Source of the DNA: an uncultured Actinomycetota bacterium
GTDB lineage: Bacteria > Actinomycetota > Actinomycetes > Actinomycetales > Kineosporiaceae
Direction: 5' to 3'
Assembly (NCBI GenBank): GCA_963792195.1
Contig: CAWBVK010000009.1
Span: 12,988-76,987 of the forward strand
DNA: 64,000 nt
The notes beneath the pieces were generated by a model. That model did no database searches. It was given only the letters and a program-made list of their open reading frames with translations, and had not been told where the DNA came from. Made by a program: the position numbers and the translations under genes. Shown here one piece after another: positions 15,415-28,635 of the stretch. Every line of letters begins with the position of its first letter. The stretch's first letter is position 1.

Positions 15415-17792
15415 GGGTCTCGGCATCCGTGCGGCTCGCCGTCGCGGGCTGGATCGCCACGATGCTCGCCAGCATGACCATCTTCCCGCTGGTGCAGGGC
15501 GGCGGCTGGTGGATCGCGCTGGGGCTCATCGCCGCCGTCACGTCGGGCGCGGGCCTCCTCGCCCGGCGCTTCACGGCATGCGGACCCGCTCGTGGTCGCC
15601 GTCCAGGTGGTGACCTGGGTGGTGGCCATGACCCTGCTCTTCCTGCCGCACCAGGCCTGGGCCGGCGTCCTCCCGGGACCCGACGCGATCGACCAGGGCC
15701 GGCTGCTGTTCGAGCAGGGTCTGCGCGTCATGCACCGGGCGGCACCCCCCGTCGACGACACGACGAGCGTCATCTTCGTGACGGCGGGCGGCCTCACCCT
15801 GGTCGCCCTCGTGGTCGACGTGCTCGCCGTGACGCTGCGGCGCCCCGCCGTCGCGGGCCTCCCGCTGCTCGCGGTCTACTGCGTGCCGGCGGCCGTGCTC
15901 CCCGACGGCCTGCCCTGGCCGTACTTCCTGTTGGCCGCGCTCGGATTCCTCGTCCTCGTCGGCGTCGACTCGGTGGACCGGGTGCAGGCCTGGGGCCGGG
16001 TGCTCGCCGGCACCGACGCCGACGGCCGGTCCGCGATCACCTTCGGCAACGGCGCACGCAAGATCGCCTCGGTCAGCCTCGCCGTGGCGGTCGTGCTGCC
16101 GCTGCTCGTGCCGGGGCTCGGCGAGCGCGTGCTCGGCGAGCGCAGCGGCGCGGGCACCGGGTCCGGCAAGGGAGGCACCGCCGTGGTGGTGGACCCGCTG
16201 CTGCGGCTGCGCCAGGACCTCCAGCAGCCGAGCGACGCACCGATCATGACCTACACGACGGACATGGCCGACCCGCAGCCGCTGCGGATGGTCGTCGAGG
16301 ACGAGTTCACCGGCGACGCATGGCAGTCGACCGTGAGTTCGGTGCCGCAGGACCAGCAGCCCGCGAACGGCGTCGGGGACCCCGAGGGCCTGACCGCGAA
16401 GGACGTCCAGCGGCCGGAGCACACGACCACCATCAAGGTGGGCAGCCTCGCCGAGAGCTACCTGCCGCTGCCCTACCCCTGGACGTCGGCCAACCCGCCC
16501 GGCAACTGGTACTACGACGACTCCACCCGCACCGTGGTCGGGGTCGGCTCCTCGACGAAGGGGATCACGTACACGGTGGACCACTTCACCGTGGACGCCA
16601 CGCCCCAAGAACTGCGCGACGCGCCCGCGGCGCCCCCGGACATCGTGGACCGGTACACCAAGCTGCCGCCCGGCACCAACCCGGAGATCGCCACGATAGC
16701 GGCCCAGCAGGCCGGCCCCGGGACGAAGTTCGACCAGGCCGTCAGTCTGCGGGACTGGCTGCGAAAGTTCGAGTACTCGTTCAAGGCACCGGGGGACGGC
16801 ACGAACGACAGCAGCAGCGACGTGATCCTGCAGTTCCTGAAGGAAAAGAAGGGCTACTGCGTGCACTTCGCCGCCGCGATGGCGGTGATGGCGCGCACCC
16901 TCGGGATCCCCGCTCGCGTCGTCGTGGGGTTCCTCCCCGGGACCAAGGACGCCCAGGGCACCTGGACGATCCGCGTGAAGGACGCGCACGCCTGGCCGGA
17001 GCTCTACTTCCAGGACTACGGCTGGGTGCGGTTCGAGCCGACCCCGTCCGCAGGGTTCCCAGGGGGTCGGCGACGTCGTCTCCGGTGGCCTGCCGCAGCA
17101 GCAGCCGACCGCGACCGCCACGGCCCAGCCGACCGCGAGCGCCTCGTCGACGAGCGGCCGCATCAAGGGTGAGGACCCCAACCCCGACGAGTCCTCGCTG
17201 ACCGCCGCGGGGAGCGCGGCGAAGCCGGGGTGGCAGCGGATCGCCGCCGCGCTGCCGTGGCCCTGGATCGGTCTGGGTCTCGTGCTGCTGCTCGTCGCCG
17301 CGGCGCCGTCCACCGCGCTCGCGCTGGCACGACGGTCACGGTGGCGGCGTGTCGACAGCCGCGCCGGGCGTGCCGAGGCCGCGCTGGACGAGCTGGCCGA
17401 GCGCCTCGAGGACCTCGGCCTGCACGTCTCGCCCGCCTGGACCCCGCGGGGTCTGCGGCAGTGGCTGGTGGGCGCGGAGCACGTGCCGCCCAGCCGGACA
17501 GCTGCGCTGGACCGGCTGGTGGGCGAGGTCGAGTCGGCGCGGTACGCGCCGCCGGGCGGCGAGGGGCTGTCGGCGGAGGAGCTGCGCGCGCGACGTGCTC
17601 GAGGTGGTCGCGATCGTGGCCGAGCAGGTGCCCGCCGGCCGGCGACGGCTCGCACGGCTCCTGCCGGCATCCGGCATCGCGGCGCTCGGCGGGGCGGCGC
17701 GGCGGGCCGAATCGGCGGCCGACGGCGCCGGCCGCCGGGCGATGAGCCAGGTCGACGAGGTGCGCAAGCTGGTCGGCGGCCGACGGCGCTGA
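15411..17792 (+). CDS. Transglutaminase-domain membrane protein (TgpA-like), frameshifted
   Basis: GTG 15411 overlaps the DUF58 stop (GTGA). Multi-TM N-terminus. Cys-His-Asp core KKGYCVHFAAAMAVMARTLGIPARVVVGF...DAHAWPELYFQDYGWVRFEPTP. C-terminal TM plus DUF4129-like tail ending at 17792. Confidence 0.85.
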
Positions 17793-17975
17793 GCCGGCCC
17801 GTGGCGCTGAGCGGGCCCCGGCGCCTCGACTCGGTCACTCGGTCGCTGCGCGGGGACCGGGCTCGCGGGGGGGATCGCGGGGACGACACGACGTCGTTGC
17901 CGCGGCGCGTCCATCCCCCGTGATCTGGTTCTCGGGGCTGGGGGCCGGGAGGCGCGGTGGCGCCGCACATGCAGC

Positions 17976-18003
17976 GGGCCCCGCCGGTGGTCCGGCGGGG
18001 CCC
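17976..18003. terminator. Perfect 12-bp GC stem / 4-nt loop hairpin between convergent genes
   Basis: GGGCCCCGCCGG-TGGT-CCGGCGGGGCCC. It lies 32 nt past the stop of the 18035..18424 gene and about 180 nt past the tgpA-like stop. No U-tract, as is common in high-GC actinobacteria. Confidence 0.5.
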
Positions 18004-18034
18004 GAGGCCTTGAGCGAGGCGGGTCTGCGGTGGG

Positions 18035-18424
18035 TCAGCGCTCCTCGCGGCGGCGCTCCCAGCGCTCCTCGAGTCGCTGCATGAACGAGCCGCGGCGCCG
18101 GCGGTTGGGAGTGACGGGGCGGACGGTTCCGGCGCGGTTGACCACGCCGTGGGCCCGGGCTTCTTGCCGGGAGGAGACGGTGTAGGCGAACGCGGCCAGC
18201 ATGACCAGGAAGCCCGCGATGCCGACGATCACCTGCTGCTCTGCGACGCCGACGAGCAGCAGGACCAGGCCGAGGACGACGCCGACGATCCCGAGGAGCA
18301 GCCGTCGGGCCGAACTCGATCGACGGACGGCGCCCCGCATGGCCGAGGCCCACTTCGGGTCCTCGGCGTAGAGAGCGCGCTCCATCTGCTCGAGCAGGCG
18401 CTGCTCGTTCTCGGAGAGCGGCAC
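18035..18424 (-). CDS. DUF3040 family small membrane protein (Rv2169c-like); intact
   Basis: MPLSENEQRLLEQMERALYAEDPKWAS followed by two TM helices (LLLGIVGVVLGLVLLLVGV, VIVGIAGFLVMLAAFAY). Confidence 0.8.
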   Translation of the reverse strand: MPLSENEQRLLEQMERALYAEDPKWASAMRGAVRRSSSARRLLLGIVGVVLGLVLLLVGVAEQQVIVGIAGFLVMLAAFAYTVSSRQEARAHGVVNRAGTVRPVTPNRRRRGSFMQRLEERWERRREER

Positions 18425-18541
18425 GTCGACCTCCTGGGTACACGGTGCGTTGGAGACAGGATAGGTCGGGCCACGCCGGTGCGAAACCCGGTCTGGTCAT
18501 CGTCGACACTCCGCCGGTGCTTACTTGACGTCACCTCGGAT

Positions 18542-19877
18542 CTACCGGTGGCAATCCTGTGATCGGGAGCACCGGGCCTCCGTAGTGCGGACAAGCCGGG
18601 CGCACGCTGCGTCACGAGCCGGGGGCCGGCAGTGTGCTCCGTGCTCTCGGGGACCAGGGCGGCCGGGCGCACCGCGCCCGGCTCCGAAGCGGGCGCTGGC
18701 ACGGTCGACGGCACGCTCCGCCTCGCGCCAGCCCTGCGGGACGCTCGTCGAGGGCAAGCTGCTGGTGGCCGGTGGTGGCCGGGGCGAGGCCTTCGACGCG
18801 GACGCCGACGAGACGCAGCCGGGCCCGGTCGAGCCCGAGCCGCAGGAACAGGTCGCGCGCGGTGGCGTAGACCGTCCGCGCGACGTCGGTCGGCTCGCCG
18901 CAGGGTCCGCGAGCGGGTGATCGTCGTGAAGTCGGCGAAGCGGACCTTCAGGACGACGGTGCGCCCGACGGCGTCCTGGGCACGCAGGCGGGCCGCCACG
19001 CGCTCGGACAGGCGCAGCACCTCGCGGAGCACGACCTCGGGGTCGTCGACGTCCCGGGCGAAGGTCTCCTCCGCGCCGATGCTCTTCTCCGCCTGCTCGG
19101 CGACGACGCGGCGCGGGTCGCGGCCCCAGGCGAGCTCGTGCAGGTGCGCGCCCGCTGCCTCGCCGAGGGCGCGCTTGAGGGTGTCGAGCGGGGTGTGCGC
19201 GAGATCGGAGACGGTGCGCAGGCCGAGACGGTGCAGCGCCTCCTCCGTGCGCTCCCCCACTCCCCAGAGCGCGCCGACGGGAAGCGCCGTGCAGGAAGGG
19301 GACCGTCTCGTCCCGCGGGACCACGAGCATGCCGTCGGGCTTGGCCCGCCCCGAGGCCAGCTTGGCGACGAACTTCGTCGAGGCGACCCCGACGGAGCAG
19401 GTGATCTGCTGCTCGTCCGCGACGCGGTCGCGGATCAGCCCGGCGATGATCGACGGCCGTCCGAGCCGGCGCACGGCCCCGGCGACGTCGAGGAACGCCT
19501 CGTCGAGGCTGAGCGGCTCGACCAGCGGGGTGACCGATCGGAAGATCTCCATGACCCCGCGCGACACCTCCGCGTATCGGCGGTGGTCGGGCTCGACCAC
19601 GACGCGCCTGCGGGCACAGCCGGCGGGCACGGGTCATCGGCATGGCCGCGTGCACCCCGAAGGCCCGGGCCTCGTAGGTGGCCGACAGGACGACCCCGCG
19701 GCTGCCGCCACCACCCACGACGACGGGCAGGCCCCGCAGGTGCGGCCGGTCGACGAGCTCCACCGAGGCGTAGAAGGCGTCCATGTCGACGTGCAGGATC
19801 GTGCAGTCGCTGTCGTCGCCGGACAGGGCCGCCCGGTCGCGGGCGGCGCCAGCGCGGTCGAGCTGGCGCCGGCTCAC
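18542..19877 (-). CDS. dinB: DNA polymerase IV (Y-family, DinB), frameshifted; 3' end uncertain (18542-18614)
   Basis: [88 protein letters not shown]-type segment, [20 protein letters not shown]-terminal [18 protein letters not shown]. Pieces in three frames. Confidence 0.85.
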
Positions 19878-19881
19878 GGAG

Positions 19882-20724
19882 TCACCGCCGGGGCCGCCGG
19901 GTCGCGCATGGCGGCAGCGTCACGCGGGGCGCGGCGGGGCCGACCGGGCCCTCGCGCCGCAGGACGACGTGCAGCTGGGCGCAGACCGCGGCGAGCTCGG
20001 GCTGCTCGCTGGCCGCACGCTCGAGCTCGAGCAGGTCCTGGACGGCGTCGGGGTCGCCGTCGACGAGCGCACCGGGGAGCAGGTCGGTGACGAGCCGGAC
20101 CCCGTGCGCGGCCCGCACCCGGACGGGTTCGGCCTCGAACAGCGCGAGGACACCGGCGCGGTCGAACCGGCGGGCGATCGGGTCCTGCGGCCCGGTGCGG
20201 CCGTCGGGGTCCTCGAGCAGCCTGGCGGGCCGCACCGAAGCGACCCGAGAGGGCGCGGGCCAGGAGCGCCCCGAGCCGCTGGGCGACGAGGACGCTGACC
20301 ATCCCGCCGGGCCGCAGCACCTCGAGCATGTCGAGCACGGCGGCCTTGGGGTCGTCGACGTGCTCGAGGACGCCGTGGCAGAGCAGCAGGTCGGCGCCGG
20401 ACGCGCCCGACGACCGCCGAGAGGTGCCCCGGCGTCGCCCTGCTCGGCGCGCACCGCGCCCGGCGACGCCGGCCTCGGCGGCCCGGCGCTGGAGCGCGGC
20501 GAGCGCGTCGGGACTGGGGTCGACGACGGTGACGCGGTGCCCCAGCCCCGCCAGGGGAACCGCGAAGCCGCCCGTGCCGCCGCCGACGTCGACGACGTCG
20601 AGGGGGCGCGGCCGAGCCCGTCGTGCTCGCGGAGCAGGGCGTCGAGGACGTCCCAGACGACGGCCGTGCGGACGGCCTGGCGCGGGTCGGCGCGGGCCGC
20701 CCAGCGGCGCGCTTCGTCGGACAC
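19882..20724 (-). CDS. Class I SAM-dependent methyltransferase, frameshifted
   Basis: GTG 20724 ([16 protein letters not shown]). Manual stitching gives motif [35 protein letters not shown] and [13 protein letters not shown]...[11 protein letters not shown]. The stop is 4 nt before the dinB start. Confidence 0.7.
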
Positions 20725-20862
20725 GGCCGGTCTCCCAGCGGGGCGAAGGGGTGGGGCGGACCAGGCCACCCTAGCGACGCGCGCGGCACGGGCCGGGACG
20801 CGCGCGGCACGGTCACCCGGTCGAGCGCGTGCCGGGGACCCGCGCCCCCGGCGACCGCGCCC

Positions 20863-23800
20863 TCACCGGCCGGAGCTGCCGGGGCTGGCGTGCCACAGCT
20901 TGCGCGCCGGGTCGCCGCGGCGACGGTCGGCGCGGTCCTGCGAGGTCTCGGCGGCGGTCATCCGCCGGGTGTCCCGGGTCTGGTCGCCCGGCGTCCCCAC
21001 GTCGGCGTAGGGCGACTGCCGGTAGCCCGTGGCGTACTCGACCAGGACCCGCCGGTACCCCGGGCCGCCACCCATGCCGCCGGCACGGCGCTGGTCGTCG
21101 TCGGGGGCCGCAGCGGCCGCGGCCGCGGGGCGGTACCCGTCGCGGTCGCCCACCGGCAGCCCGGTCGCCGCGACCTCCTGCGTCGCGGTCGTAGGGCGGG
21201 TTGACGCTCACGCCGAACTCGGTGACCGGCGGCCGGGCGAGCACGGGCCGCGGAGGACCGGCTCGCCGCCGCCCCGGCCACCGCTCCCTGCGTCGCACCG
21301 GTCCGACCCGGCGCGGTGCTCGAGCAGCTCGCGGACGGCGTCGGTGCCGCCCTCGGTCCAGGCGTCCCAGAGCACGGGCAGCTCCCAGGCGCCGGTCGCG
21401 CGCAGGCTGACGCCGCGCGGGCCGGTCCTGCGCAGCACCCCGCGCACGACGAGCAGCCAGGAGTGGAACACCGTGGCGGCGTAGGGGCCCTGGACGTCCT
21501 CGAAGAAGGTCGCGTCGACCGGCCCGGTGGCGTCGTCGAGGGTGAGGAAGACGACCCGCCGCCCCGAGCGGATCGGCGGGGTCTGGGTCGCCACCTTGAC
21601 CCCGGCGACCAGCAGGTCGGCCCGGCTGCGCCGGCTGCAGGAGGTCGCGCGAGCGGGTGATGCCGAGCTCGTCGAGCATCGGGGCGTAGAAGTCGAGCAC
21701 GTGCCTGCTGGCGTCGAGACCCAGCACCTCGAGCTCGGCGCGCACCCGCTCGGCGCCCGTCATCTCGGCCAGCCCGGCCGGGACGGTCTCGTCGGGGGCG
21801 TCACCGAGGTCGAGCGCGAGCTGCACCGGCTGGAGCTGGGCGGGGGTCGCGGCGCGGGGCGCCTGCGACTGGCGGGCGGCGGCGGCGCGGACGGCGTCGG
21901 GAGGGCCCGCGGCGCCACCGGCGGCGACCGCCGTGCTCGACCGCACCTGCCGCCGCGCCCGGTGCCCGGGACCCTGCCGCGCGGTGTGCGCCCGCGCAGG
22001 GCCGCACGTGTCCACCGGTCGAGCTCGGCGACCTGGAGCAGCAGGTCACGACGCGTGACCCGGCCCCGGCGCCGGACCGGCACGGGCGAACCCGAGGCCG
22101 TAGAGGGTGTCGAACGCGCCGGCCACGACGAGCCGTTCGACGACGGGCCGGGAGACCCCGGCGCGGTGCCAGAAGTCGGCGAGCGAGTGGTAGGGCCGCC
22201 CGGCGACGACCCGCTCGACCTCGGCGTCGGTGATGCCCTTGACGTCGGCGAGGGCGAGCCGGATGCCGTAGGGGCGCCCGTCGGGCAGGTCGGGGTGAGG
22301 ACGTTCGCGGGCCGGGGCGGCTTCGGGCGTGCCGTCCCGCTGCGCCTCGAGCTGGTCGAGGACCCGCGGCGGCGGCTCGTCCCACCAGGTCACCTTCTCG
22401 ACGCGGTACGTCGGCCTCGGAGCGGTTGACGTCGAGCGGGAGCACGGCGATGCCGAGGTTGCGCGCGTCGTCGAGGATCAGCCGCTTGGGGTACATGCCG
22501 GGGTCGTGCGTCAGCACACCGGCGAGGAACGCGGCGGGGTGGTGCGCCTTGAGCCACGCCGAGTGGTACGTCGGCAGGGCGAACGCGGCGGCGTGCGCCT
22601 TGCAGAACCCGAACGACGCGAAGGCCTTGAGCACCTCCCAGACCCGGTCGACGGTCGGCGTCGTCGAACCCCTGCCGGCGGGCGATCGGGCGGAACCACT
22701 CCTCGACCTCGAGCTGGCCCTCCCGGCTGCCCAGCGTGCGGCGCACCTCGTCGGCCTGGGCCAGCCCGCAGCCCGTCATCGCGTCGATGATCTGCAGCAC
22801 CTGCTCGTGGAAGACGACGACGCCGCCGGTCGGCGCGAGCGTAGGGCTCGAGCCGCTCGTGCAGGTAGTCGGGCTCGTCCCAGCCCTGCCGTGCCCGCAG
22901 GAACGGGGTCACCATGTCGGACTTCACGGGGCCGGGGCGGAACAGCGAGATGTCGATGACGAGGTCGAGGAAGGTCTCGGGCCCGAACTTGCCGACGAGC
23001 TCACGCTGCCCCGGCGACTCGATCTGGAAGCAGCCGAGGGTGTGGGCCGTGCGGATGAGCCGGAAGGTCGGCTCGTCGTCGTGCGGCACGGCGTCGAGCT
23101 CGATCCGCCCGGTCGCGGCGTCGACGTACGGCGCGTCGGCCGGGTGCTCCCCGGCGCGCACCGCGTCGGGGCCGTCGACGCGGGCGATCTCGTCGAGGGC
23201 GTACGCCATCGCCGACTGCATGCGGATCCCGAGGACGTCGAGCTTCAGCAGGCCCATCTGCTCGACGTCGTCCTTGTCGAACTGGCTCATCGGGAAGCCG
23301 AGCCAGCTCGCCTCGACCGGGGTGCGGTCGAGCAGGCCGGCGTCGGAGATGAGCACGCCGCAGGGGTGCAGGGCGACATGGCGGGGCAGCCCGTCGAGCC
23401 GCTCGACGAGGTCGAAGAGCACGCCGAGCCGCTCCGAGGCGATCCCCGAGGCGCGCAGCTCGGGCAGCTCGACGAGGGCGTGCCGCACGTCGCGGGCGCG
23501 GATGTGCGGGAACGACTTGGCGATGACGTCGATCTCGCCGGGCGGCATGCCGAGCGCGGCACCGGCGTCGCGGATCGCGTGCCGCACGCGGTAGGTGTCC
23601 ATCATGGAGACGCACGCGACCCGGTCGGAGCCGAAGCGCTGCGAGGATCGCCTCGTAGACCTCGGTGCGCCGGGCGGACTCGACGTCGAGGTCGATGTCG
23701 GGCAGCGCGATCCGCAGCGGGCGTGAGGAACCGCTCCATGAGCAGGTCGTACCGGATCGGGTCGACCCCCGAGATGCCCAGCAGGTGGTTGACCAGGCTG

Positions 23801-25117
23801 CCGGCGCCCGAGCCGCGTGCCGCAACCCGGACGCCGAGGTCGCGCACGAGCGTGCAGACCTCGTCGACGGTGAGGAAGTAGGAGGCGAAGCCGAGCCGGG
23901 CGATGGTGTCGAGCTCGTCGTCGAGGCGGTGCACGACCTGCCGGAGCCTGCTCGCTGACAGGCCCGGGTACTTCCGGTCGATCTCGGCCTCGCAGTTCTT
24001 GCGCAGGCGCGCGTTCGCGTCCTCGGCCTCCTCGAGGCCGAGGACGTGGTTCTCGGGCAGGTGCACCGAGTCGATGCCGAGGTCGGCGCGGAGATCGAGC
24101 CGGCAACGGGCGGCGAGAGCCTGAGTCGCCGCGAGCAGGCGGGCGGCGCCCCCAGGGTCGTCGGCGGCGCGCGCGACCTCGGTCGCGATCGGCGCCATGT
24201 GCCCGGGACCGGCCAGGTACCCCTGCGCGCTCACCCGGTCGAGGTGGCGCCCGTCGAGCGGGACGAGCCGCCGTGCGGAGTCGAGGACGTCGGCGGTCGC
24301 GGCATCGGCGGGGTCGACGTACCGCACGGCGTTCGTGAGGACGGCCGGGACGCCGGCGGCACGGGCGAGCTCGAGCATCCGCGCGGCGTGACCGACGCTC
24401 GCGGGGCCGCCCTGGGGGCCGTGGTGGCAGACGACCTCGACGGCGAGCGCCCCGGGGGGCAGCGCGGCAGCCCACCGGGCGAGGACGGCGCGGGCGAGGT
24501 CGGGGCGCCGGGCGAGAACGGCCCGGCCCACCTCGGAGTCGGGGCCGAGGAGCACGACCAGGCCCGCCGGCCCCGGGGGCGGGTCGGACGGGGGTGGGTC
24601 GGACCCCGGCGCGGGGACCGACGGGTCGCCGATCAGCCGGGCATGGGCGGCGACGGACTCCAGGGTGGCGACCGGCCGGCCGCGCTCGCCGCGCAGGTGG
24701 GTGGCCGAGACGAGGCGGCACAACCGGGCCCAGCCGCCGCCGGCGGGGACGCCGGCGCCGTGGTCGGCGCCGAGCGCGAGGACGGTGACGCGGGGGTGGC
24801 GGGGGTCGACGGTCGCACCGCCGCGCACCGGGCTGCGCCGACGCGGCGCCGGTCGGTCCGGCCGAGGGCACGGCCCAGGGGGGCAGCCCGGTCAGCAGGC
24901 CGGTCGGTTCGACCGCGAGGTCCGCACCCAGCACGGGCGCGATCCCGGCGGTGCGGCAGGCCAGGACGAACTTCACGGCGCCGTACAGACCGTCGCGGTC
25001 GGTCAGGGCCAGGGTGTCCATCCCCTGCGCGGCGGCCGCTCCGACCAGCGCCGCCGGCATCGATGTGCCGTACCTCAGCGAGTACCCCGATGCGACGTGG
25101 AGGTGCGGGAAGGACAC
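20863..25117 (-). CDS. dnaE2: Error-prone DNA polymerase III alpha paralogue DnaE2 (ImuC), at least eight frame switches
   Basis: GTG 25117 MSFPHLHVASGYSLRYG (PHP). LGFASYFLTVDEVC, LPDIDLDVES, GLPRHVALHPCGVLISD, GLLKLDVLGIRMQS, TLGCFQIESPGQRELV, FGFCKAHAAAFALPTYHSAWLKAHHPAAFLAGVL, VVFLTLDDATGPVDATFF. C-terminus ...YATGYRQSPYADV...RKLWHASPGSSGR*. Confidence 0.9.
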
Positions 25118-25135
25118 GGCGGGCCTGCCGGGCCG

Positions 25136-25570
25136 TCAGTTGCAGGTGGGGATGGCGCCCGGCAGCACCTGCTGGTACGGCAGACCGAAGGACGCTTCGA
25201 CGACGTGGTGGAAGGCCTCGGCATCGCGGAGCAGGTCGTCCGCCTCGCGGGCGGTGATCGTGTCGCCGCGGCCGGCCTCGACGGCGGCCCGGCGCGATGC
25301 GGTCGCCGCGAAGAACGAGGCCCACTCCCCCATCTCGGGAGCGAGCCGCGGCAGCACGTCCCACACGCTGCGCGGGCCGCCGCGGGAGCCGGGCCGCCCG
25401 CGGACCGCGAGCACGGCGGCCGCGGCACGCAGCGCCGCCATGTGCGCGGCGAGGTAGCGCTCGCTGCAGCTGCGGGCGGCCGCTGCGTGCAGCAGGCCGG
25501 CCCGGGACCGGTCGAGCAGCACGCGGGCGGCCGGGGACAGGGGCGGTCGGGTCAGGGTCGTCGCCGTCAC
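25136..25570 (-). CDS. Small HEPN-like protein (resembles SAV_6107-family HEPN domain proteins); intact
   Basis: 144-aa ORF with its stop 18 nt before the dnaE2 start. ERYLAAHMAALRAAAAVLAVRGRP...SVWDVLPRLAPEMGEWASFFA...READDLLRDAEAFHHVVE. The family was recognised from memory only; no search was possible. Confidence 0.55.
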   Translation of the reverse strand: MTATTLTRPPLSPAARVLLDRSRAGLLHAAAARSCSERYLAAHMAALRAAAAVLAVRGRPGSRGGPRSVWDVLPRLAPEMGEWASFFAATASRRAAVEAGRGDTITAREADDLLRDAEAFHHVVEASFGLPYQQVLPGAIPTCN

Positions 25571-25631
25571 GTCGGCTTCCTCCGGGGGTTCGTGGGGTGG
25601 CTGCTCGTCGGGCTCTCGCGGGCGGCTGCCC

Positions 25632-25718
25632 GGGCTGTCGGGCGGGCTGGTCGGGCTGATCGGGCTGGTCGGGCTGGTCGGGCTGATCGGGCTGATCGGG
25701 CTGGTCGGGCTGATCGGG
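25632..25718 (-). repeat. 9-bp tandem repeat GGGCTG(G/A)TC, 8 full copies plus degenerate flanks
   Basis: Units at 25644-25715, read directly. On the minus strand they encode (PDQ)n in one frame and (SPT/SPI)n in the HEPN frame. Four units contain GATC. Confidence 0.9.
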
Positions 25719-25752
25719 ACCGGACGGTGTGCTCACGGACGTCGCCGGGGTC

Positions 25753-26193
25753 TCAGTCCTCGATGCGGACCAGGTGCCACTGGTCGGCCGGGGACCCGCG
25801 CGAGGGCGACGGCGCCCCGGCGGGCTCACGGGACAGGTCGTAGACGCCGCCCCGGTAGGCCCGGCCCGGCGAAGCGGCCACCCGCCACACCTCGCGCTCG
25901 TCCGCGAGGCCGGCGATGCGCGCCGCCGTGCTCCCCGGGCTGCTCCCCGGGCTGCCCCCCGCGCTGCTCCCCCGATCGGCCTCACGGCCCTCGCCGGTGA
26001 CGCCCGCCGGGCCCTCCCCCTCGCCGTGCACGAGCCGCGCGGCGGGCGAGGACCACCAGGCGCGACGCTCCCGCCAGTGCCCGAGGACGTCGCGGACGAC
26101 GTAGAGACGGCCACGCCACAGGAAGGCGGCGGGTGCCCCGGCCGCGTCGCCCGTGGCCGGGCGCACCTCGACCGGATCCGCGTACATGCGCAT
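25753..26193 (-). CDS. DUF6504-like small protein; intact
   Basis: 146-aa ORF: AAFLWRGRLYVVRDVLGHWRERRAWW...EREVWRVAASPGR...GGVYDLSRE...WHLVRIED. GAGAGGGGA RBS about 12 nt upstream of ATG 26193. Family recalled from memory. Confidence 0.6.
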   Translation of the reverse strand: MRMYADPVEVRPATGDAAGAPAAFLWRGRLYVVRDVLGHWRERRAWWSSPAARLVHGEGEGPAGVTGEGREADRGSSAGGSPGSSPGSTAARIAGLADEREVWRVAASPGRAYRGGVYDLSREPAGAPSPSRGSPADQWHLVRIED

Positions 26194-26408
26194 GACGTGC
26201 CATCCCCTCTCGATCGCGACCGCGAGACCGGCCGCCGGACGCGAGTGACGAGGCCCGGAGGGGGAAGGCAGGCGTCGCCGAGATGACCGGGCGGGCGCTT
26301 CCCCACGCCCGCCCGGTCACCTACGACGGATGGCCCGGGAACAGGGCGGGGTCGAGGTCACCCTGCCCCGGACCACCCGACCGACCAGGCCGCGATCCCG
26401 GTCGGCGA

Positions 26409-26423
26409 TCGAACACTGTTCGA
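26409..26423. promoter_or_regulatory. LexA (SOS) box-like palindrome with 3-nt spacer
   Basis: TCGAAC-ACT-GTTCGA. Both arms match the actinobacterial consensus TCGAAC-N4-GTTCGA. On the minus strand a TACAGT -10-like hexamer (26437-26432) lies 8 nt upstream. About 215 nt upstream of the DUF6504-like start. Confidence 0.55.
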
Positions 26424-26540
26424 ACAATTCGACTGTACACCCGCGCCGGGCAGTGTCAACGGCGTCGCCGTGCGGGGCCCCGCGGGACCGCCGGTACGGC
26501 CGGTACGGGACGCCGCGTCCGAACGGCGCGAGGGAAGCCG

Positions 26541-27149
26541 TCAGGCCTGCGGGTAGCGGACGTCGACCCCGAGCTGGGCGGCCAGCGCGGGCGCGAGCTC
26601 GAGCACCTGGCCGACGTCGAGGACGGCCCCGCCGAGGCGGTCGAGCCCGCGCGCGACGTCGAGGGCGACGGCGCCGCGCAGGTCGACCTCGGTCAGCGTC
26701 GCGCCGGTGAGGTCGAGCCGTTCGATCCGGCACCCCGCGAAACTCACGCCGGTGAGCTGCGCGCCGCCGAGGTCGACCTCGCGCAGCCGGCAGTCCTCGA
26801 ACACGACCTCGTCGAGCACGGCCCCGCGCAGGTTCACGACGTCCAGCAGGCAGCCGGTCGAACCTGCACCCGCCGCAGCGACGACCCGAGCAGCTCGCAC
26901 CCCGACAGGGCGCACCCCGTCAGGTCCACCCCGCGCCACTGGGTCCGCGCCATCCGGGCACCCACGGCACCGGACGCCGTCGAGCGCGCCGCCCCGCCAC
27001 AGCGAGCGCTCCCAGCGGCCGCCCGTGACGGTCACCGCCTCGAACGTGCAGGCGAGGAACCTGGCGCCCGGCGCGTCGACCTCGTCGAACGCGCCGTGCG
27101 ACCAGGCGACGTCCTCGTAGGTGCGGTCCGGCACCGGCGCGACGAGCAC
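26541..27149 (-). CDS. Pentapeptide-repeat protein, frame excursion in the middle
   Basis: Runs such as FEDCRLREVDLGGAQLTGVSFAGCRIERLDLTGATLTEVDLRGAV and FLACTFEAVTVTGGRWERSLWRGGALDGV. Confidence 0.75.
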   Translation of the reverse strand: MLVAPVPDRTYEDVAWSHGAFDEVDAPGARFLACTFEAVTVTGGRWERSLWRGGALDGVRCRGCPDGADPVARGGPDGVRPVGVRAARVVAAAGAGSTGCLLDVVNLRGAVLDEVVFEDCRLREVDLGGAQLTGVSFAGCRIERLDLTGATLTEVDLRGAVALDVARGLDRLGGAVLDVGQVLELAPALAAQLGVDVRYPQA

Positions 27150-27205
27150 CTGGCGAGACTAACCAGCGCGAGCCGTCCGTCGGTGGGTCGCACTAGCCTT
27201 CGGCC

Positions 27206-27765
27206 ATGTCCTCGTCACCGGCGGAGGGTCCCTCCGCACCGACCGCCACCGGTCCGGCCGGCCCCGCGGATGTGGCCGGCCATCCAGCCGTCCTCCGGGT
27301 GCGGGCGGCACTGGCGGCCGCCGGTGCGGACGGCGACGGCGTCGTGGTCCTCGACGACCACGCGCGCACCGCCGCCGCCGCCGCCGAGCAGCTCGGCGTC
27401 ACGGTCGGGCAGATCGCGAACTCGCTGGTGTTCGCCGTCCCCGACGCCTCAGCGGCCGGCGGCCGCCGTCCGCTCCTGGTGCTGACGTCGGGCGCCCACC
27501 GGGTCGACACGGCCAAGGTCGCCGGGCTCGTCGGCGTCCCACGGCTCGACCGGGCCGACCCCGACTTCGTCCGGGAGCGCACCGGCTTCGTGATCGGCGG
27601 CGTCGCGCCCGTGGGTCACCTGGCCCCGCTGGAGACCCTGGTCGACGTCGCGCTCGCCGAGCACGCCAGGTGTGGGCGGCCGCCGGCCACGCGAAGGCGG
27701 TCTTCCCCACGACGTTCGACGAGCTCGTGCGCATCACCGGCGGGCGGCCGGCCGAGGTCGCATGA
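27206..27765 (+). CDS. YbaK/EbsC-type aminoacyl-tRNA deacylase-like protein, one frame switch near 27668
   Basis: TAAAAAEQLGVTVGQIANSLVF, LVLTSGAHRVDTAKVA, TGFVIGGVAPVGH. C-terminus RVWAAAGHAKAVFPTTFDELVRITGGRPAEVA* by manual translation. Stop overlaps the next ATG. Confidence 0.75.
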
Positions 27766-28635
27766 GCACCGGCAGCACGAGCGCCCGCACGGGCACCGGC
27801 AGTGCGCTCGCCCTGCTCACCGGGCCGCCGACGCTCCGCGTCGGCGGCGTCGCCGTCACGCGCACCGGCCGGCCGCCGGGCGATGCGCCCGCGCTGCTGC
27901 TCGTGCACGGCGTCGGGCGCCGCGCGGCTCGTCTGGGCGCCGGTGCTCGCGCCGCTGGCCGCCCGCTACGACGTGCTCGCGGTCGACCTGCCGGGGCACG
28001 GCGCCTCCGCGCCGCTGCCGCCGGGCGCCGACGCCGGCTGCGCGGCGCTCGCCGCCGGGCTCGGCGAGGTGCTGCAGGCGCTCGGCGTGACCCGCCCGCA
28101 CGTGGTCGGCAACTCCCTCGGCGGCGTGGGTCGCCCTCGAGCTCGCCGCGGACGGCGGCGCCGCGAGCGTGACCGGGCTGGCCCCGCCGGGCTGCGCGCC
28201 GCGCCCGGGCGAGCCCAACCCCGTGCTGCACCTCAACCGACGCTGGCCCGGCTCACCGGCCGGCTCGGCGAGGCGCTCGCCGCGAACGCGCTCGGCCGCC
28301 GGCTCACCTTCGCCAGCGGCACGGCCGACCCGGCCGCGCTCGACCCGGGCCTCGCCCGCGGCGTGGTGCACGCCATGCGCACCTCCACGGCCTACGAGGC
28401 GATGATCGCGGCCACCCGGCACCGCACCTTCGACCGGGGCGCCCGGGTGCGGGTGCCGGTCACGTCGTGTTCGGCGACGACGACCGGATCCTCCCGGCCC
28501 CCGACAACCAGCACCGCGAGGCGGCGCCGCCCGGGCGCGCGCTGGGTCGTGCTGCCCCGCTGCGGCCACGCCCCGATGTGGGACGCGCCGGCCCGCACCG
28601 TCGAGCTGGTCGACGAGACCGTGAGCGCGGCGTGA
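27762..28635 (+). CDS. Alpha/beta-fold hydrolase, frameshifted
   Basis: ATG 27762 (ATGA overlap). ALLLVHGVG, LAVDLPGHGAS, nucleophile elbow HVVGNSLGG, C-terminal LPRCGHAPMWDAP. Confidence 0.75.

Follow-up and report, generated by a model that had tools for sequence, protein, structure and literature searches.

The DnaE2B-PolY-ImuBC-RecA system was described by the Venclovas laboratory (Timinskas & Venclovas, NAR 2019, PMC6511836; Venclovas lab, NAR 2026, PMC12926913), with Tessaracoccus lapidicaptus, Kineococcus radiotolerans and Janibacter indicus as examples. In the published scheme RecA replaces ImuA, and a DinB bearing a RecA-NT motif together with ImuB-C represents a split ImuB; genomes with DnaE2B are reported to carry neither imuA nor imuB. 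For K. radiotolerans, a well-modelled tetramer was obtained from PolY (ABS04677), DnaE2B (ABS04679), ImuB-C (ABS04681) and RecA (PMC12926913). The dnaE2-dinB2 operon of Streptomyces (DnaE2B-iPolY-RecA) is bound by LexA and induced by DNA damage (Tsai et al. 2012, PMC3273824; Stratton et al. 2022, PMC9380542). Knock-outs of dnaE2 in S. coelicolor lack a UV-mutagenesis phenotype, so that a mutagenic role of DnaE2B is unproven. The HEPN proteins of the SAV_6107 family were described without gene context or function, and their Rx4-6H motif was found not to be conserved (Anantharaman et al. 2013, PMC3710099).

Here we describe a locus in a 64-kb stretch of actinobacterial DNA, referred to as the window, which we judge with a probability of about 0.8, from its sequence, to be a LexA-controlled operon of the DnaE2B-PolY-ImuBC-RecA type. 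This system type is already described; the locus also has a structured RNA leader and genes for a HEPN protein and a methyltransferase, none of which the papers searched mention for it.

Results

Organisation of the locus

Five minus-strand genes were found in the order imuB-C, HEPN, dnaE2, class I SAM methyltransferase and dinB (Table 1), with intergenic gaps, from the first to the last gene, of 182, 18, about 93-138 and 4 nt; order and gaps agree with the earlier note. The locus is chromosomal and adjoins the dcw cell-division cluster. The arrangement imuB-C-HEPN-dnaE2-(methyltransferase)-dinB-DUF3040 is present in 37 Kineosporiales loci, and the linkage of both small genes to dnaE2, which the note had proposed to check in relatives, is conserved. 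The DUF3040 gene lies 3' of dinB in every sufficiently long locus, both in Kineosporiales and in metagenomes; it is a conserved neighbour and a candidate member of the operon. The pentapeptide-repeat gene on the other side is located upstream of the promoter and hence outside the SOS unit, and a tblastn match to it was obtained upstream of imuB-C in 17 of the 37 loci. The gene itself is real, but the Qnr/MfpA-type DNA mimic that had been seen in it was rejected, as its scores are far under the NCBIfam cut-offs (MfpA, 31.7 vs 360 bits; Qnr, 21.8 vs 240 bits) and a generic pentapeptide repeat alone was confirmed.

Table 1. Features of the translesion locus and its flanks, in window coordinates
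Feature	Position	Strand	Evidence or remarks
DUF3040 gene, downstream neighbour	18071..18424	-	PF11239, E=4e-29
dinB, Y-family PolY; at least 5 frame changes, 3' end approximate	18542..19877	-	Active-site, clamp and RecA-NT-like motifs
Class I SAM-dependent methyltransferase; two possible starts (20769, 20724), broken frame in the window	19882..20769	-	Families of the L002 orthologue
dnaE2 (DnaE2B group), ~1418 codons; 8 frame pieces, 7 apparent 1-nt indels	20863..25117	-	tblastn, catalytic motifs
SAV_6107-type HEPN protein, 144 aa, intact; GTG start, GGAGGAAG upstream of start	25136..25570	-	PF18726, E=1e-34
Tandem repeat in the imuB-C/HEPN spacer; 9-nt period, 8.4 copies	25643..25718	.	Tandem Repeats Finder
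imuB-C, standalone ImuB C-terminal domain protein, 146 aa, intact	25753..26193	-	Pfam PF20114 (DUF6504), E=2e-21
Leader hairpin 1 in the 216-nt 5' leader; 15-bp stem, invariant loop GACCUCGACCCC	26332..26374	-	RNAalifold and covariance model
LexA (SOS) box TCGAAC-AGT-GTTCGA (26423-26409)	26409..26423	-	Both half-sites; 3-nt spacer
Sigma70-like promoter TTGACA-16-TACAGT (26459->26432)	26432..26459	-	Sole promoter-like site in 17800-27300
Pentapeptide-repeat protein gene (27149->26541)	26541..27149	-	Pfam Pentapeptide, E~1e-13; upstream of promoter

The first gene encodes ImuB-C

Pfam searches placed both small proteins in the families named earlier, with scores far above the gathering thresholds (DUF6504, 76.4 vs 24.2 bits; HEPN_SAV_6107, 119.1 vs 27.2 bits), while no NCBIfam model matched either. 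The DUF6504 protein was aligned with the published ImuB-C proteins APH01277, QFG68257, QBR94233 and ABS04681, and invariant columns, among them F-x-W-R-G-R, W-W, G-V-x-D-L and W-x-L, are common to all of them. In addition, the Pfam DUF6504 model matches the C-termini of bona fide ImuB proteins, in Sphingomonas above the gathering threshold (E=3.8e-5) and in Agrobacterium with E=0.002, which are encoded within imuA-imuB-dnaE2 operons. The AF2 model of the protein is beta-rich and has no match in the PDB. On the strength of these alignments, DUF6504 is assigned as the C-terminal domain of ImuB in the form of a standalone protein, and the K. radiotolerans orthologue ABS04681 is the ImuB-C of the published system (PMC12926913). 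The imuB slot is thus not taken by an unrelated uncharacterised protein, as had been supposed. The tandem repeat between imuB-C and HEPN is replaced in relatives by other repeats, which are read as N-terminal extensions of HEPN.

Two polymerases in the absence of imuA and full-length imuB

When an intact orthologue of 1450 aa was used as tblastn query, residues 3-1445 were covered contiguously by the dnaE2 of the window, and the catalytic motifs PDIDLD and KLDVLG were found. The protein ends in RKLWHASPGSSGR, a tail that 40 loci share without any change, and the SRDF[H/R] tail of the ImuA/ImuB-associated DnaE2 A group is missing. The gene occupies the same operon position across Kineosporia, Spongisporangium and Kineococcus, with a tblastn identity to the reference locus L002 of 57-100% in Kineosporiales loci (60-67% in Kineococcus) and of 57-88% for the pieces in the window. 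Its product is longer than published DnaE2B proteins (~1418 vs 1250-1320 aa). Judged by tail, operon position and identity, the window dnaE2 is assigned to the B group. In dinB, the active-site motif described before is indeed intact, SLDEAFLD and AVRPAALV are found, and both a beta-clamp motif and a RecA-NT-like tail are present; an intact orthologue scored above the NCBIfam Pol IV cut-off (400 vs 367 bits). The gene therefore apparently encodes an active Y-family polymerase with RecA-NT-like and beta-clamp motifs.

Actinobacterial and alphaproteobacterial ImuA, ImuA' and ImuB queries were run against the window (tblastn, E<=0.01), and homologues of ImuA, ImuA', ImuB, LexA, RecA or SRAP were not found in the 64 kb. 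A canonical ImuA-ImuB-DnaE2 cassette was therefore rejected: the genes upstream of dnaE2 are imuB-C and HEPN. The description of the array as lacking imuA and imuB holds for imuA and full-length imuB in the window, but the C-terminal domain of ImuB is present as DUF6504. It had also been considered that imuA'/imuB reside elsewhere in the genome, as in M. tuberculosis; this is unlikely, because DnaE2B genomes are reported to be without both genes (PMC6511836, PMC12926913). Nor, contrary to what had been thought, is it unusual for one SOS unit to combine two error-prone polymerases, since the Streptomyces dnaE2-dinB2 operon was already known.

Promoter, LexA box and leader

A scan of positions 17800-27300 gave a single promoter-like site, where 0.1 were expected by chance, and its -35 and -10 hexamers are kept in eight relatives. 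Directly downstream, 216 nt 5' of the imuB-C ATG, lies the LexA box, so that LexA half-sites and a single promoter precede the five genes, in agreement with the damage-regulated unit proposed before. The actinobacterial operator TCGAAC-N4-GTTCGA was found as a perfect 12/12 match at the same position in 36 of 36 Kineosporiales loci, and 50 of the 52 metagenome loci score at least 11/12. The palindrome reported about 215 nt upstream is confirmed in position but is one base short, its spacer being AGT (3 nt instead of N4) where the nearest relatives have AAGT. In the alignment with relatives, the window sequence alone has a 1-nt gap in the box. The missing base is probably another indel error of the kind described below; if the window sequence were correct, the 3-nt spacer would weaken LexA binding.

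In the leader upstream of imuB-C, a hairpin was found whose stem covaries and whose loop, CUCGACCCC, is invariant. RNAalifold gave 15 pairs, 13 of them with compensatory changes, and 95% of cells were paired, compared to 34-48% in slid controls and with none of 500 shuffles as high. The covariance model R1 has a single match in the window (26329-26377, 62 bits), and no match for the leader was obtained in Rfam. The minimum free energy of the leader has a z-score of -6.5; the corresponding fold has the Shine-Dalgarno sequence paired with CUUCCCCCUCC. Based on this folding model, it is possible, if tentative, that a structured leader with an anti-Shine-Dalgarno stretch gates the translation of imuB-C.

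The HEPN protein and the methyltransferase

The AF2 model of the HEPN protein (pLDDT 90.6, pTM 0.85) was compared with the PDB by Foldseek. The top four structures, 2hsb, 1wol, 1ufb and 3o10, are all HEPN domains (probability 1.00), with TM-scores of 0.60-0.68 by query length and 0.65-0.77 by target length, so that the HEPN fold is confirmed at the level of the model. The gene lies between imuB-C and dnaE2 in 37 of 37 Kineosporiales loci and directly 3' of imuB-C in all 73 informative metagenome loci, i.e. those whose downstream sequence reaches 184 nt or more. Among the best 150 of 1173 representatives of the HEPN family no fusion proteins were found.

For the methyltransferase, the orthologue in L002 carries Methyltransf_11/12/23/25/31, and the best NCBIfam match is CmoM-like (E=7e-25) and far under the cut-off. 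The gene is located between dnaE2 and dinB in 22 of the 30 Kineosporiales loci with both polymerase genes, and in 15 of 15 long metagenome loci. Its conserved position would fit an accessory enzyme of the module, an assignment that we put forward with reserve.

HEPN and methyltransferase might alternatively be passengers, i.e. resident dcw-proximal genes inside the translesion cassette without a role in translesion synthesis, which appears doubtful. Lone HEPN genes occur in the Streptosporangiales Planomonospora, Streptosporangium and Nonomuraea at the same syntenic spot (tRNA_edit ... MTHFR), without imuB-C, dnaE2 or dinB. Conversely, imuB-C-dnaE2 pairs without HEPN are found elsewhere in Nonomuraea and on plasmids of Arthrobacter and Agreia, and HEPN had no match on plasmid records other than one 11.85-Mb Nonomuraea record, which was taken as a chromosome. 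Furthermore, the methyltransferase is missing from the remaining eight Kineosporiales loci, and the published tetramer models reach good scores with neither protein included. On the other hand, only 18 nt separate HEPN from dnaE2, its place after imuB-C is kept in all 37 and 73 loci mentioned above, and this linkage is held across lineages in which ImuB-C identity is only 41-89%. HEPN is itself more conserved (69-98% vs 45-89% identity for ImuB-C), and locus L021 has lost dnaE2 while retaining imuB-C-HEPN-dinB. The lone HEPN genes, moreover, keep two SOS boxes in front of them, which argues that damage regulation belongs to the family itself and that HEPN is an SOS gene not strictly tied to DnaE2. 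The suggestion that HEPN may be an additional accessory or regulatory factor is thus backed by its conservation and weakened by the lone genes of the Streptosporangiales.

YafO is the mRNA interferase of the dinB-yafNOP operon of E. coli. An analogous role of HEPN, as an SOS-induced RNase toxin that slows growth during lesion bypass, is improbable. The fold would allow it, R115-x5-H121 in the last helix of the window protein fits Rx4-6H and is kept in 50 of 52 Kineosporiales sequences, and a weak PADLOC match was obtained (PDC-M05B, E=8e-4). However, although every DnaE2-linked member has R115, nearly all DnaE2-linked homologues outside Kineosporiales carry F, L or V in place of H121 (H in 2 of 69 aligned), and so do 142 of 148 family representatives (H in 6), in line with the family description (Anantharaman et al. 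2013, PMC3710099). In addition, neither an antitoxin nor an MNT partner is present. A classification as RNase or toxin by a conserved Rx4-6H motif was therefore rejected. Since the RNase motif is not conserved, an adaptor or regulator is more likely than a toxin, and HEPN can tentatively be regarded as a non-catalytic helical adaptor or regulator of the SOS module.

Frame breaks in the large genes

dnaE2, the methyltransferase gene and dinB are present at the positions first assigned to them, but are not open reading frames in the window: at least 14 single-base frame changes were counted over ~6.6 kb, 7 in dnaE2 (8 pieces), at least 5 in dinB and at least 2-4 in the methyltransferase gene. 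On an intact orthologue, the pieces that meet at a junction are contiguous in every case. Such frame flips run through all 64 kb of the window, in which just 13 stop-free coding-like stretches of at least 110 codons were found. Breaks of this kind are also seen in other Microflora Danica (MFD) nanopore MAG loci (L013, L017, L035), whereas isolates and short-read MAGs have dnaE2 in one frame. Taken together, the breaks are most likely long-read assembly indels rather than marks of pseudogenes. That the cassette is decaying, with only the two small genes still functional, is very improbable: although imuB-C, HEPN and DUF3040 are intact amid so many breaks and the SOS box spacer is defective too, the flips extend to housekeeping regions, other MFD nanopore MAGs show them whereas isolates and short-read MAGs do not, no stop, deletion or drop in similarity goes with them (each piece is 57-88% identical), and short genes are spared simply because they offer fewer bases.

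Discussion

In the mechanism that we propose, DNA damage would lead to RecA-stimulated cleavage of LexA and free the TTGACA/TACAGT promoter, from which the five genes would be transcribed together. ImuB-C, predicted to be a small beta-barrel, would bind the PHP domain of DnaE2, according to published AlphaFold models of orthologues. DinB, with a seemingly intact catalytic site, clamp motif and RecA-N-terminus-like tail, would act with ImuB-C as a split ImuB, and housekeeping RecA encoded elsewhere would take the place of ImuA. HEPN would serve as helical non-catalytic adaptor or regulator and the methyltransferase as accessory enzyme, while the leader would gate imuB-C translation.

HEPN is mentioned neither in the main text nor in the supplements searched of the two papers on the system, and the word methyltransferase does not occur in their main text (PMC6511836, PMC12926913). 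Gaps between the published accessions (ABS04680/04678, APH01278/01280 and QFG68258) fit extra genes such as HEPN and methyltransferase. The Tessaracoccus genes are contiguous, so that this member probably has neither. One could speculate, with considerable doubt, that the four-protein module is incomplete and belongs in most of its actinobacterial members to a larger SOS unit with a HEPN subunit or regulator, leader gating and a dedicated SAM methyltransferase. If so, the binding partner of HEPN might be DnaE2/ImuB-C or the leader RNA of its own operon, and expression would be gated post-transcriptionally by a previously undescribed leader with the hairpin loop CUCGACCCC and an anti-Shine-Dalgarno element.

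The HEPN protein shares with the SAV_6107 family (PMC3710099; PF18726) the four/five-helix HEPN fold, the restriction to Actinobacteria and an Rx4-6H motif that is not conserved; unlike in the published description, the family is linked here with SOS boxes and, in many lineages, has its place at the imuB-C/dnaE2 junction. Compared with the canonical ImuA-ImuB-DnaE2 and ImuA'-ImuB-DnaE2 mutasomes of Caulobacter, Pseudomonas and Mycobacterium, SOS control (predicted for the locus), DnaE2 as catalytic polymerase, an ImuB-C domain predicted to hold DnaE2 and a Y-family scaffold with clamp and RecA-NT motifs are common features. In contrast, there is no ImuA here, ImuB is split into a putatively active DinB and a separate ImuB-C, and DnaE2 is of the B group, with the tail RKLWHASPGSSGR instead of SRDF[H/R].

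With the dnaE2-dinB2 operon of Streptomyces the locus has in common the order of DnaE2B followed by a Y-family gene, LexA regulation and damage induction (both predicted for the locus) and the WHASPGSxG tail; in Kineosporia species that have no methyltransferase, the dinB match begins at the coordinate where the dnaE2 match ends, similar to the 4-bp overlap of the two genes that is known from Streptomyces. It differs in that PolY of Streptomyces is described as inactive (PMC6511836, PMC12926913) while the DinB found here has an intact active site, in that the plasmid copies of Streptomyces have no ImuB-C or HEPN beside dnaE2, and in the methyltransferase gene that separates the two polymerase genes. 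Closest is the DnaE2B-PolY-ImuBC-RecA system, which is restricted to Actinobacteria and likewise combines a long DnaE2B with a standalone ImuB-C and with a PolY that is apparently active and bears a RecA-NT motif, in the absence of imuA and imuB (for the window, within 64 kb). K. radiotolerans is from the same taxonomic order, and the orthology of its ImuB-C is evident. To the four proteins of the published module, the locus described here adds HEPN and a methyltransferase.

The operon belongs to the DnaE2B-PolY-ImuBC-RecA type

The earlier note had described five minus-strand genes as an SOS-type translesion array. Their presence and order were recovered by Pfam and homology matches, but none of the three long genes forms an unbroken ORF here. 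The profile search assigned the two small ORFs to the families named for them, DUF6504 (the standalone ImuB C-terminal domain protein, ImuB-C) and SAV_6107-type HEPN. The G+C content of the window is ~77%. Homology searches assign it to the Kineosporiaceae, and many of its closest matches were Microflora Danica (MFD) nanopore MAGs. Since mraZ, rsmH and a Mur ligase gene lie downstream on the same strand, the operon adjoins the dcw cell-division cluster and occupies a core chromosomal position.

Features of the operon and its surroundings (positions in the window)
Feature	Position	Strand	Remarks
Pentapeptide-repeat gene	27149->26541		upstream of DUF6504 gene
Sigma70-like promoter, TTGACA-16-TACAGT	26459->26432
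SOS operator, TCGAAC-AGT-GTTCGA	26423-26409		directly downstream of promoter
Leader RNA	26185-26408	minus	includes the 216 nt from operator to ATG
Leader hairpin	26374->26332	minus	15 bp
DUF6504 gene (imuB-C)	26193->25753	minus	PF20114, E=2e-21
Tandem repeat, imuB-C/HEPN spacer	25643-25718		9-nt period, 8.4 copies
HEPN_SAV_6107 gene	25570->25136	minus	PF18726, E=1e-34
dnaE2	25117->20863	minus
DnaE2B tail, RKLWH[AST]SPGSSG[RH]	20863-20901
Class I SAM methyltransferase gene	~20769->19882	minus
dinB	19877->~18542	minus
DUF3040 gene	18424->18071	minus
TgpA-type transglutaminase gene	~15478-17169	plus
mraZ	12689-12183	minus	farther downstream of operon
rsmH/mraW	12167-10869	minus	farther downstream of operon
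Mur ligase gene	5566-4901	minus	farther downstream of operon

The locus is another example of the recently described DnaE2B-PolY-ImuBC-RecA type (Venclovas lab, NAR 2019, PMC6511836; NAR 2026, PMC12926913). DnaE2 has been divided into A, B and X groups, imuA and imuB are absent from DnaE2B genomes, and this type is confined to Actinobacteria (Venclovas lab, NAR 2026, PMC12926913). The supplementary table of that study lists Kineococcus radiotolerans, a member of the same taxonomic order, with ABS04677 (PolY, a DinB-type Y-family polymerase), ABS04679 (DnaE2B), ABS04681 (ImuB-C) and RecA graded as a "good tetramer". ABS04681 matched Pfam DUF6504 (E=2e-18), and it aligns with the window DUF6504 protein through several invariant columns (F-x-W-R-G-R, W-W, R-V-x-A, G-V-x-D-L and W-x-L), which fall in the consensus stretches FLWRGRLY, ERRAWW, EVWRVEA and GVYDL. 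When ImuB proteins from genuine imuA-imuB-dnaE2 operons were tested with the DUF6504 model, the C-terminus of Sphingomonas ImuB (residues 515-593) matched above the gathering score (E=3.8e-5), and those of Agrobacterium and Granulicella ImuB gave E=0.002 and E=0.055, respectively. In hhalign, the matches of the DUF6504 alignment to single ImuB sequences were only weak (E 0.08-0.14), one at the expected C-terminal place and the other (comparison sequence L008, residues 353-378) upstream of the C-terminal domain; this result was superseded by the Pfam matches on ImuB and the published ImuB-C assignment. The AF2 model of the window DUF6504 protein is beta-rich and found no PDB match in Foldseek, as was likewise reported for ImuB-C of the published system, and a PDB sequence search with DUF6504 returned nothing meaningful. 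The window DinB carries SLDEAFLD and one further catalytic motif, a QLALDE clamp-type motif and a RecA-N-terminus-like tail. Homologues of ImuA, ImuA', ImuB, RecA, LexA and SRAP were not found within the 64-kb window. The imuA and imuB genes are indeed lacking from it, as was first claimed, but the interpretation built on their absence is only partly right, as the DUF6504 protein that was regarded as uncharacterised is an ImuB domain. This domain is predicted to hold DnaE2.

Frame breaks in the window

The window dnaE2 spans residues 3 to 1445 of an intact orthologue (L002, 1450 aa) in eight pieces, and each frame change falls at contiguous residues. At least five frame changes are present in dinB and several in the methyltransferase gene. 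Gene decay would be one explanation. However, the coding frame switches every few hundred bases across the whole window (1-64000), just 13 stop-free coding-like stretches of at least 110 codons were counted in the 64 kb, and frame breaks likewise occur in other MFD nanopore MAG loci (L013, L017 and L035), whereas isolates and short-read MAGs have a single frame per gene. Taken together, these patterns favour assembly indels over decay and point to them as the probable origin of the breaks. As the frame flips signal uncorrected long-read indels, ORF-based readings of the window need frameshift-tolerant methods.

SOS operator and leader RNA

The sigma70-like promoter upstream of imuB-C is the sole such site in 9.5 kb, with 0.1 expected by chance. 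Both half-sites of the LexA-type palindrome that had been noted upstream of the first gene are present, but the spacer is one base short: the corresponding site of all 36 Kineosporiales relatives matches TCGAAC-N4-GTTCGA perfectly, and when eight relatives were aligned with the window, its box alone showed the one-base spacer gap. An SOS box matching at least 11/12 positions was found in 50/52 metagenome loci. The short spacer is probably one more indel.

The leader is conserved in an alignment with relatives. Its folding greatly surpasses that of shuffled sequence (z=-6.5), and the Shine-Dalgarno sequence is predicted to pair with CUUCCCCCUCC in the minimum-free-energy fold. The leader hairpin has an invariant loop (GACCUCGACCCC) and compensatory changes in 13/15 pairs, with 95% of cells paired compared to 34-48% in slid controls. 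A covariance model of the leader gave one match in the window and ~30 matches in loci left out of model building, always on the operon strand and just upstream of imuB-C, including lineages with different stems and an identical loop. The model matched neither Kineococcus nor plasmid dnaE2 loci, nor loci that have HEPN alone or imuB-C-dnaE2 with no HEPN gene, and a search of 17500-28000 against Rfam gave no match. The loop of the covarying hairpin reads CUCGACCCC; a second hairpin has a GGGGAAG loop, and CUUCCCCCUCC is anti-SD-like.

Conservation of the HEPN and methyltransferase genes

The HEPN gene lies between imuB-C and dnaE2 in 37/37 Kineosporiales loci. In a metagenome scan with an ImuB-C alignment led by a Janibacter sequence, it follows imuB-C in 73/73 loci that extend 184 nt or more downstream of that gene. 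There dnaE2 comes after HEPN in every contig of sufficient length, the methyltransferase gene is next in 15/15 sufficiently long loci, and dinB follows in 14 of these 15, i.e. wherever the contig reaches. The linkage of both small genes to dnaE2 is therefore conserved among relatives. In the published table, the skipped accession numbers ABS04680/04678, APH01278/01280 and QFG68258 fit HEPN and methyltransferase genes. A genome scan with the HEPN alignment used peptide patterns that reached Kineosporiales only, and the wider HEPN context derives from the metagenome scan and a second homology search.

The methyltransferase gene is absent from eight Kineosporiales loci, in which the dnaE2 and dinB matches share one coordinate; in Streptomyces, dnaE2 abuts dinB too. 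Judged from its intact orthologue, the methyltransferase is a class I SAM enzyme of generic type; the closest named match is CmoM-like, far below cut-off, and no sign of a DNA methyltransferase was seen. A PADLOC match to mad2 was uninformative, as it spans the generic SAM-binding region.

In a complete Kineosporiaceae MAG (L021, OZ241368.1, 9470-12372), imuB-C-HEPN is directly followed by dinB-DUF3040, and the locus has neither dnaE2 nor a methyltransferase gene. Relatives carry other repeats in the imuB-C/HEPN spacer, which gene callers translate as N-terminal low-complexity extensions of HEPN (products of 180-253 aa).

The HEPN protein

The AF2 model of HEPN is a confident helical bundle (pLDDT 90.6) with HEPN domains as best PDB matches, and PDB sequence searches with the protein and its profile returned nothing meaningful. 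The last helix carries R115-x5-H121, kept in 50/52 Kineosporiales sequences. Other DnaE2-linked homologues have F, L or V in place of H121, as do 142/148 family representatives, which makes a conserved RNase centre in the family unlikely; because H121 is lineage-specific, a role as RNase toxin was rejected. Positions conserved family-wide are H43, W70, W83, F87, R94, D111/D112, R115 and F120. Among 1173 representative clusters, the best 150 are all short standalone proteins, and no fusion (Rosetta-stone) proteins were found among these. A PADLOC match to PDC-M05B (E=8e-4) was judged uninformative.

A lone HEPN gene without R115 occupies the syntenic site in Planomonospora, Streptosporangium and Nonomuraea, and Nonomuraea encodes imuB-C-dnaE2 without HEPN elsewhere in its genome. 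The tie to DnaE2 is strong in many lineages, though not obligatory, and from gene context together with the SOS boxes upstream of the lone genes we conclude that the HEPN_SAV_6107 family is probably part of the DNA-damage response.

Near the lone Streptosporangiales genes, imuB-C, dnaE2 and dinB do not occur; each gene is still preceded by a pair of SOS-box matches (11/12) separated by 40 nt (L049 7740-7795, L050 7739-7794, L011 8647-8702).

The DnaE2B tail and plasmid-borne pairs

In 40 loci (L012-L133), the tail is nearly invariant at the extreme C-terminus of DnaE2B and is preceded by a variable low-complexity linker. The same tail (GRMWHASPGSAG) is found in a Streptomyces plasmid DnaE2B with an iPolY partner, and it is absent from DnaE2B partnered solely with ImuB-C and from DnaE2A, so that it tracks the PolY partner. 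Its reading as a HEPN-binding motif was rejected, as the Streptomyces plasmid DnaE2 that carries it comes without HEPN.

On Agreia and Arthrobacter plasmids, DUF6504(ImuB-C)-dnaE2 pairs lie beside an SOS-response-associated peptidase gene (L005 4934-9345, L006 5701-9990). Their carriage by these plasmids demonstrates the mobility of the minimal DnaE2B-ImuBC pair. The window DUF6504 gave no tblastn match to plasmids, although annotated DUF6504 genes occur on them.

Comparison with known systems

In mycobacteria, damage-induced mutation and hence drug resistance are driven by DnaE2-type polymerases, whereas no phenotype was found for Streptomyces dnaE2. This discrepancy could come from unrecognised partners or a post-transcriptional switch. 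The HEPN protein, the methyltransferase and the structured leader RNA accompany the module in many actinobacterial lineages and are undiscussed in searchable papers: neither the polymerase papers nor their accessible supplements use the terms HEPN, SAV_6107 or DUF6504, and a literature search found no paper combining ImuB-C with HEPN. Such ideas are directly testable in K. radiotolerans, whose genome has been sequenced from an isolate. The puzzle of a dnaE2 without imuA and imuB is already answered in print by the split ImuB and RecA; beyond that published system, comparative evidence points to the genes for HEPN and the methyltransferase and to the leader RNA as what is new in this operon.
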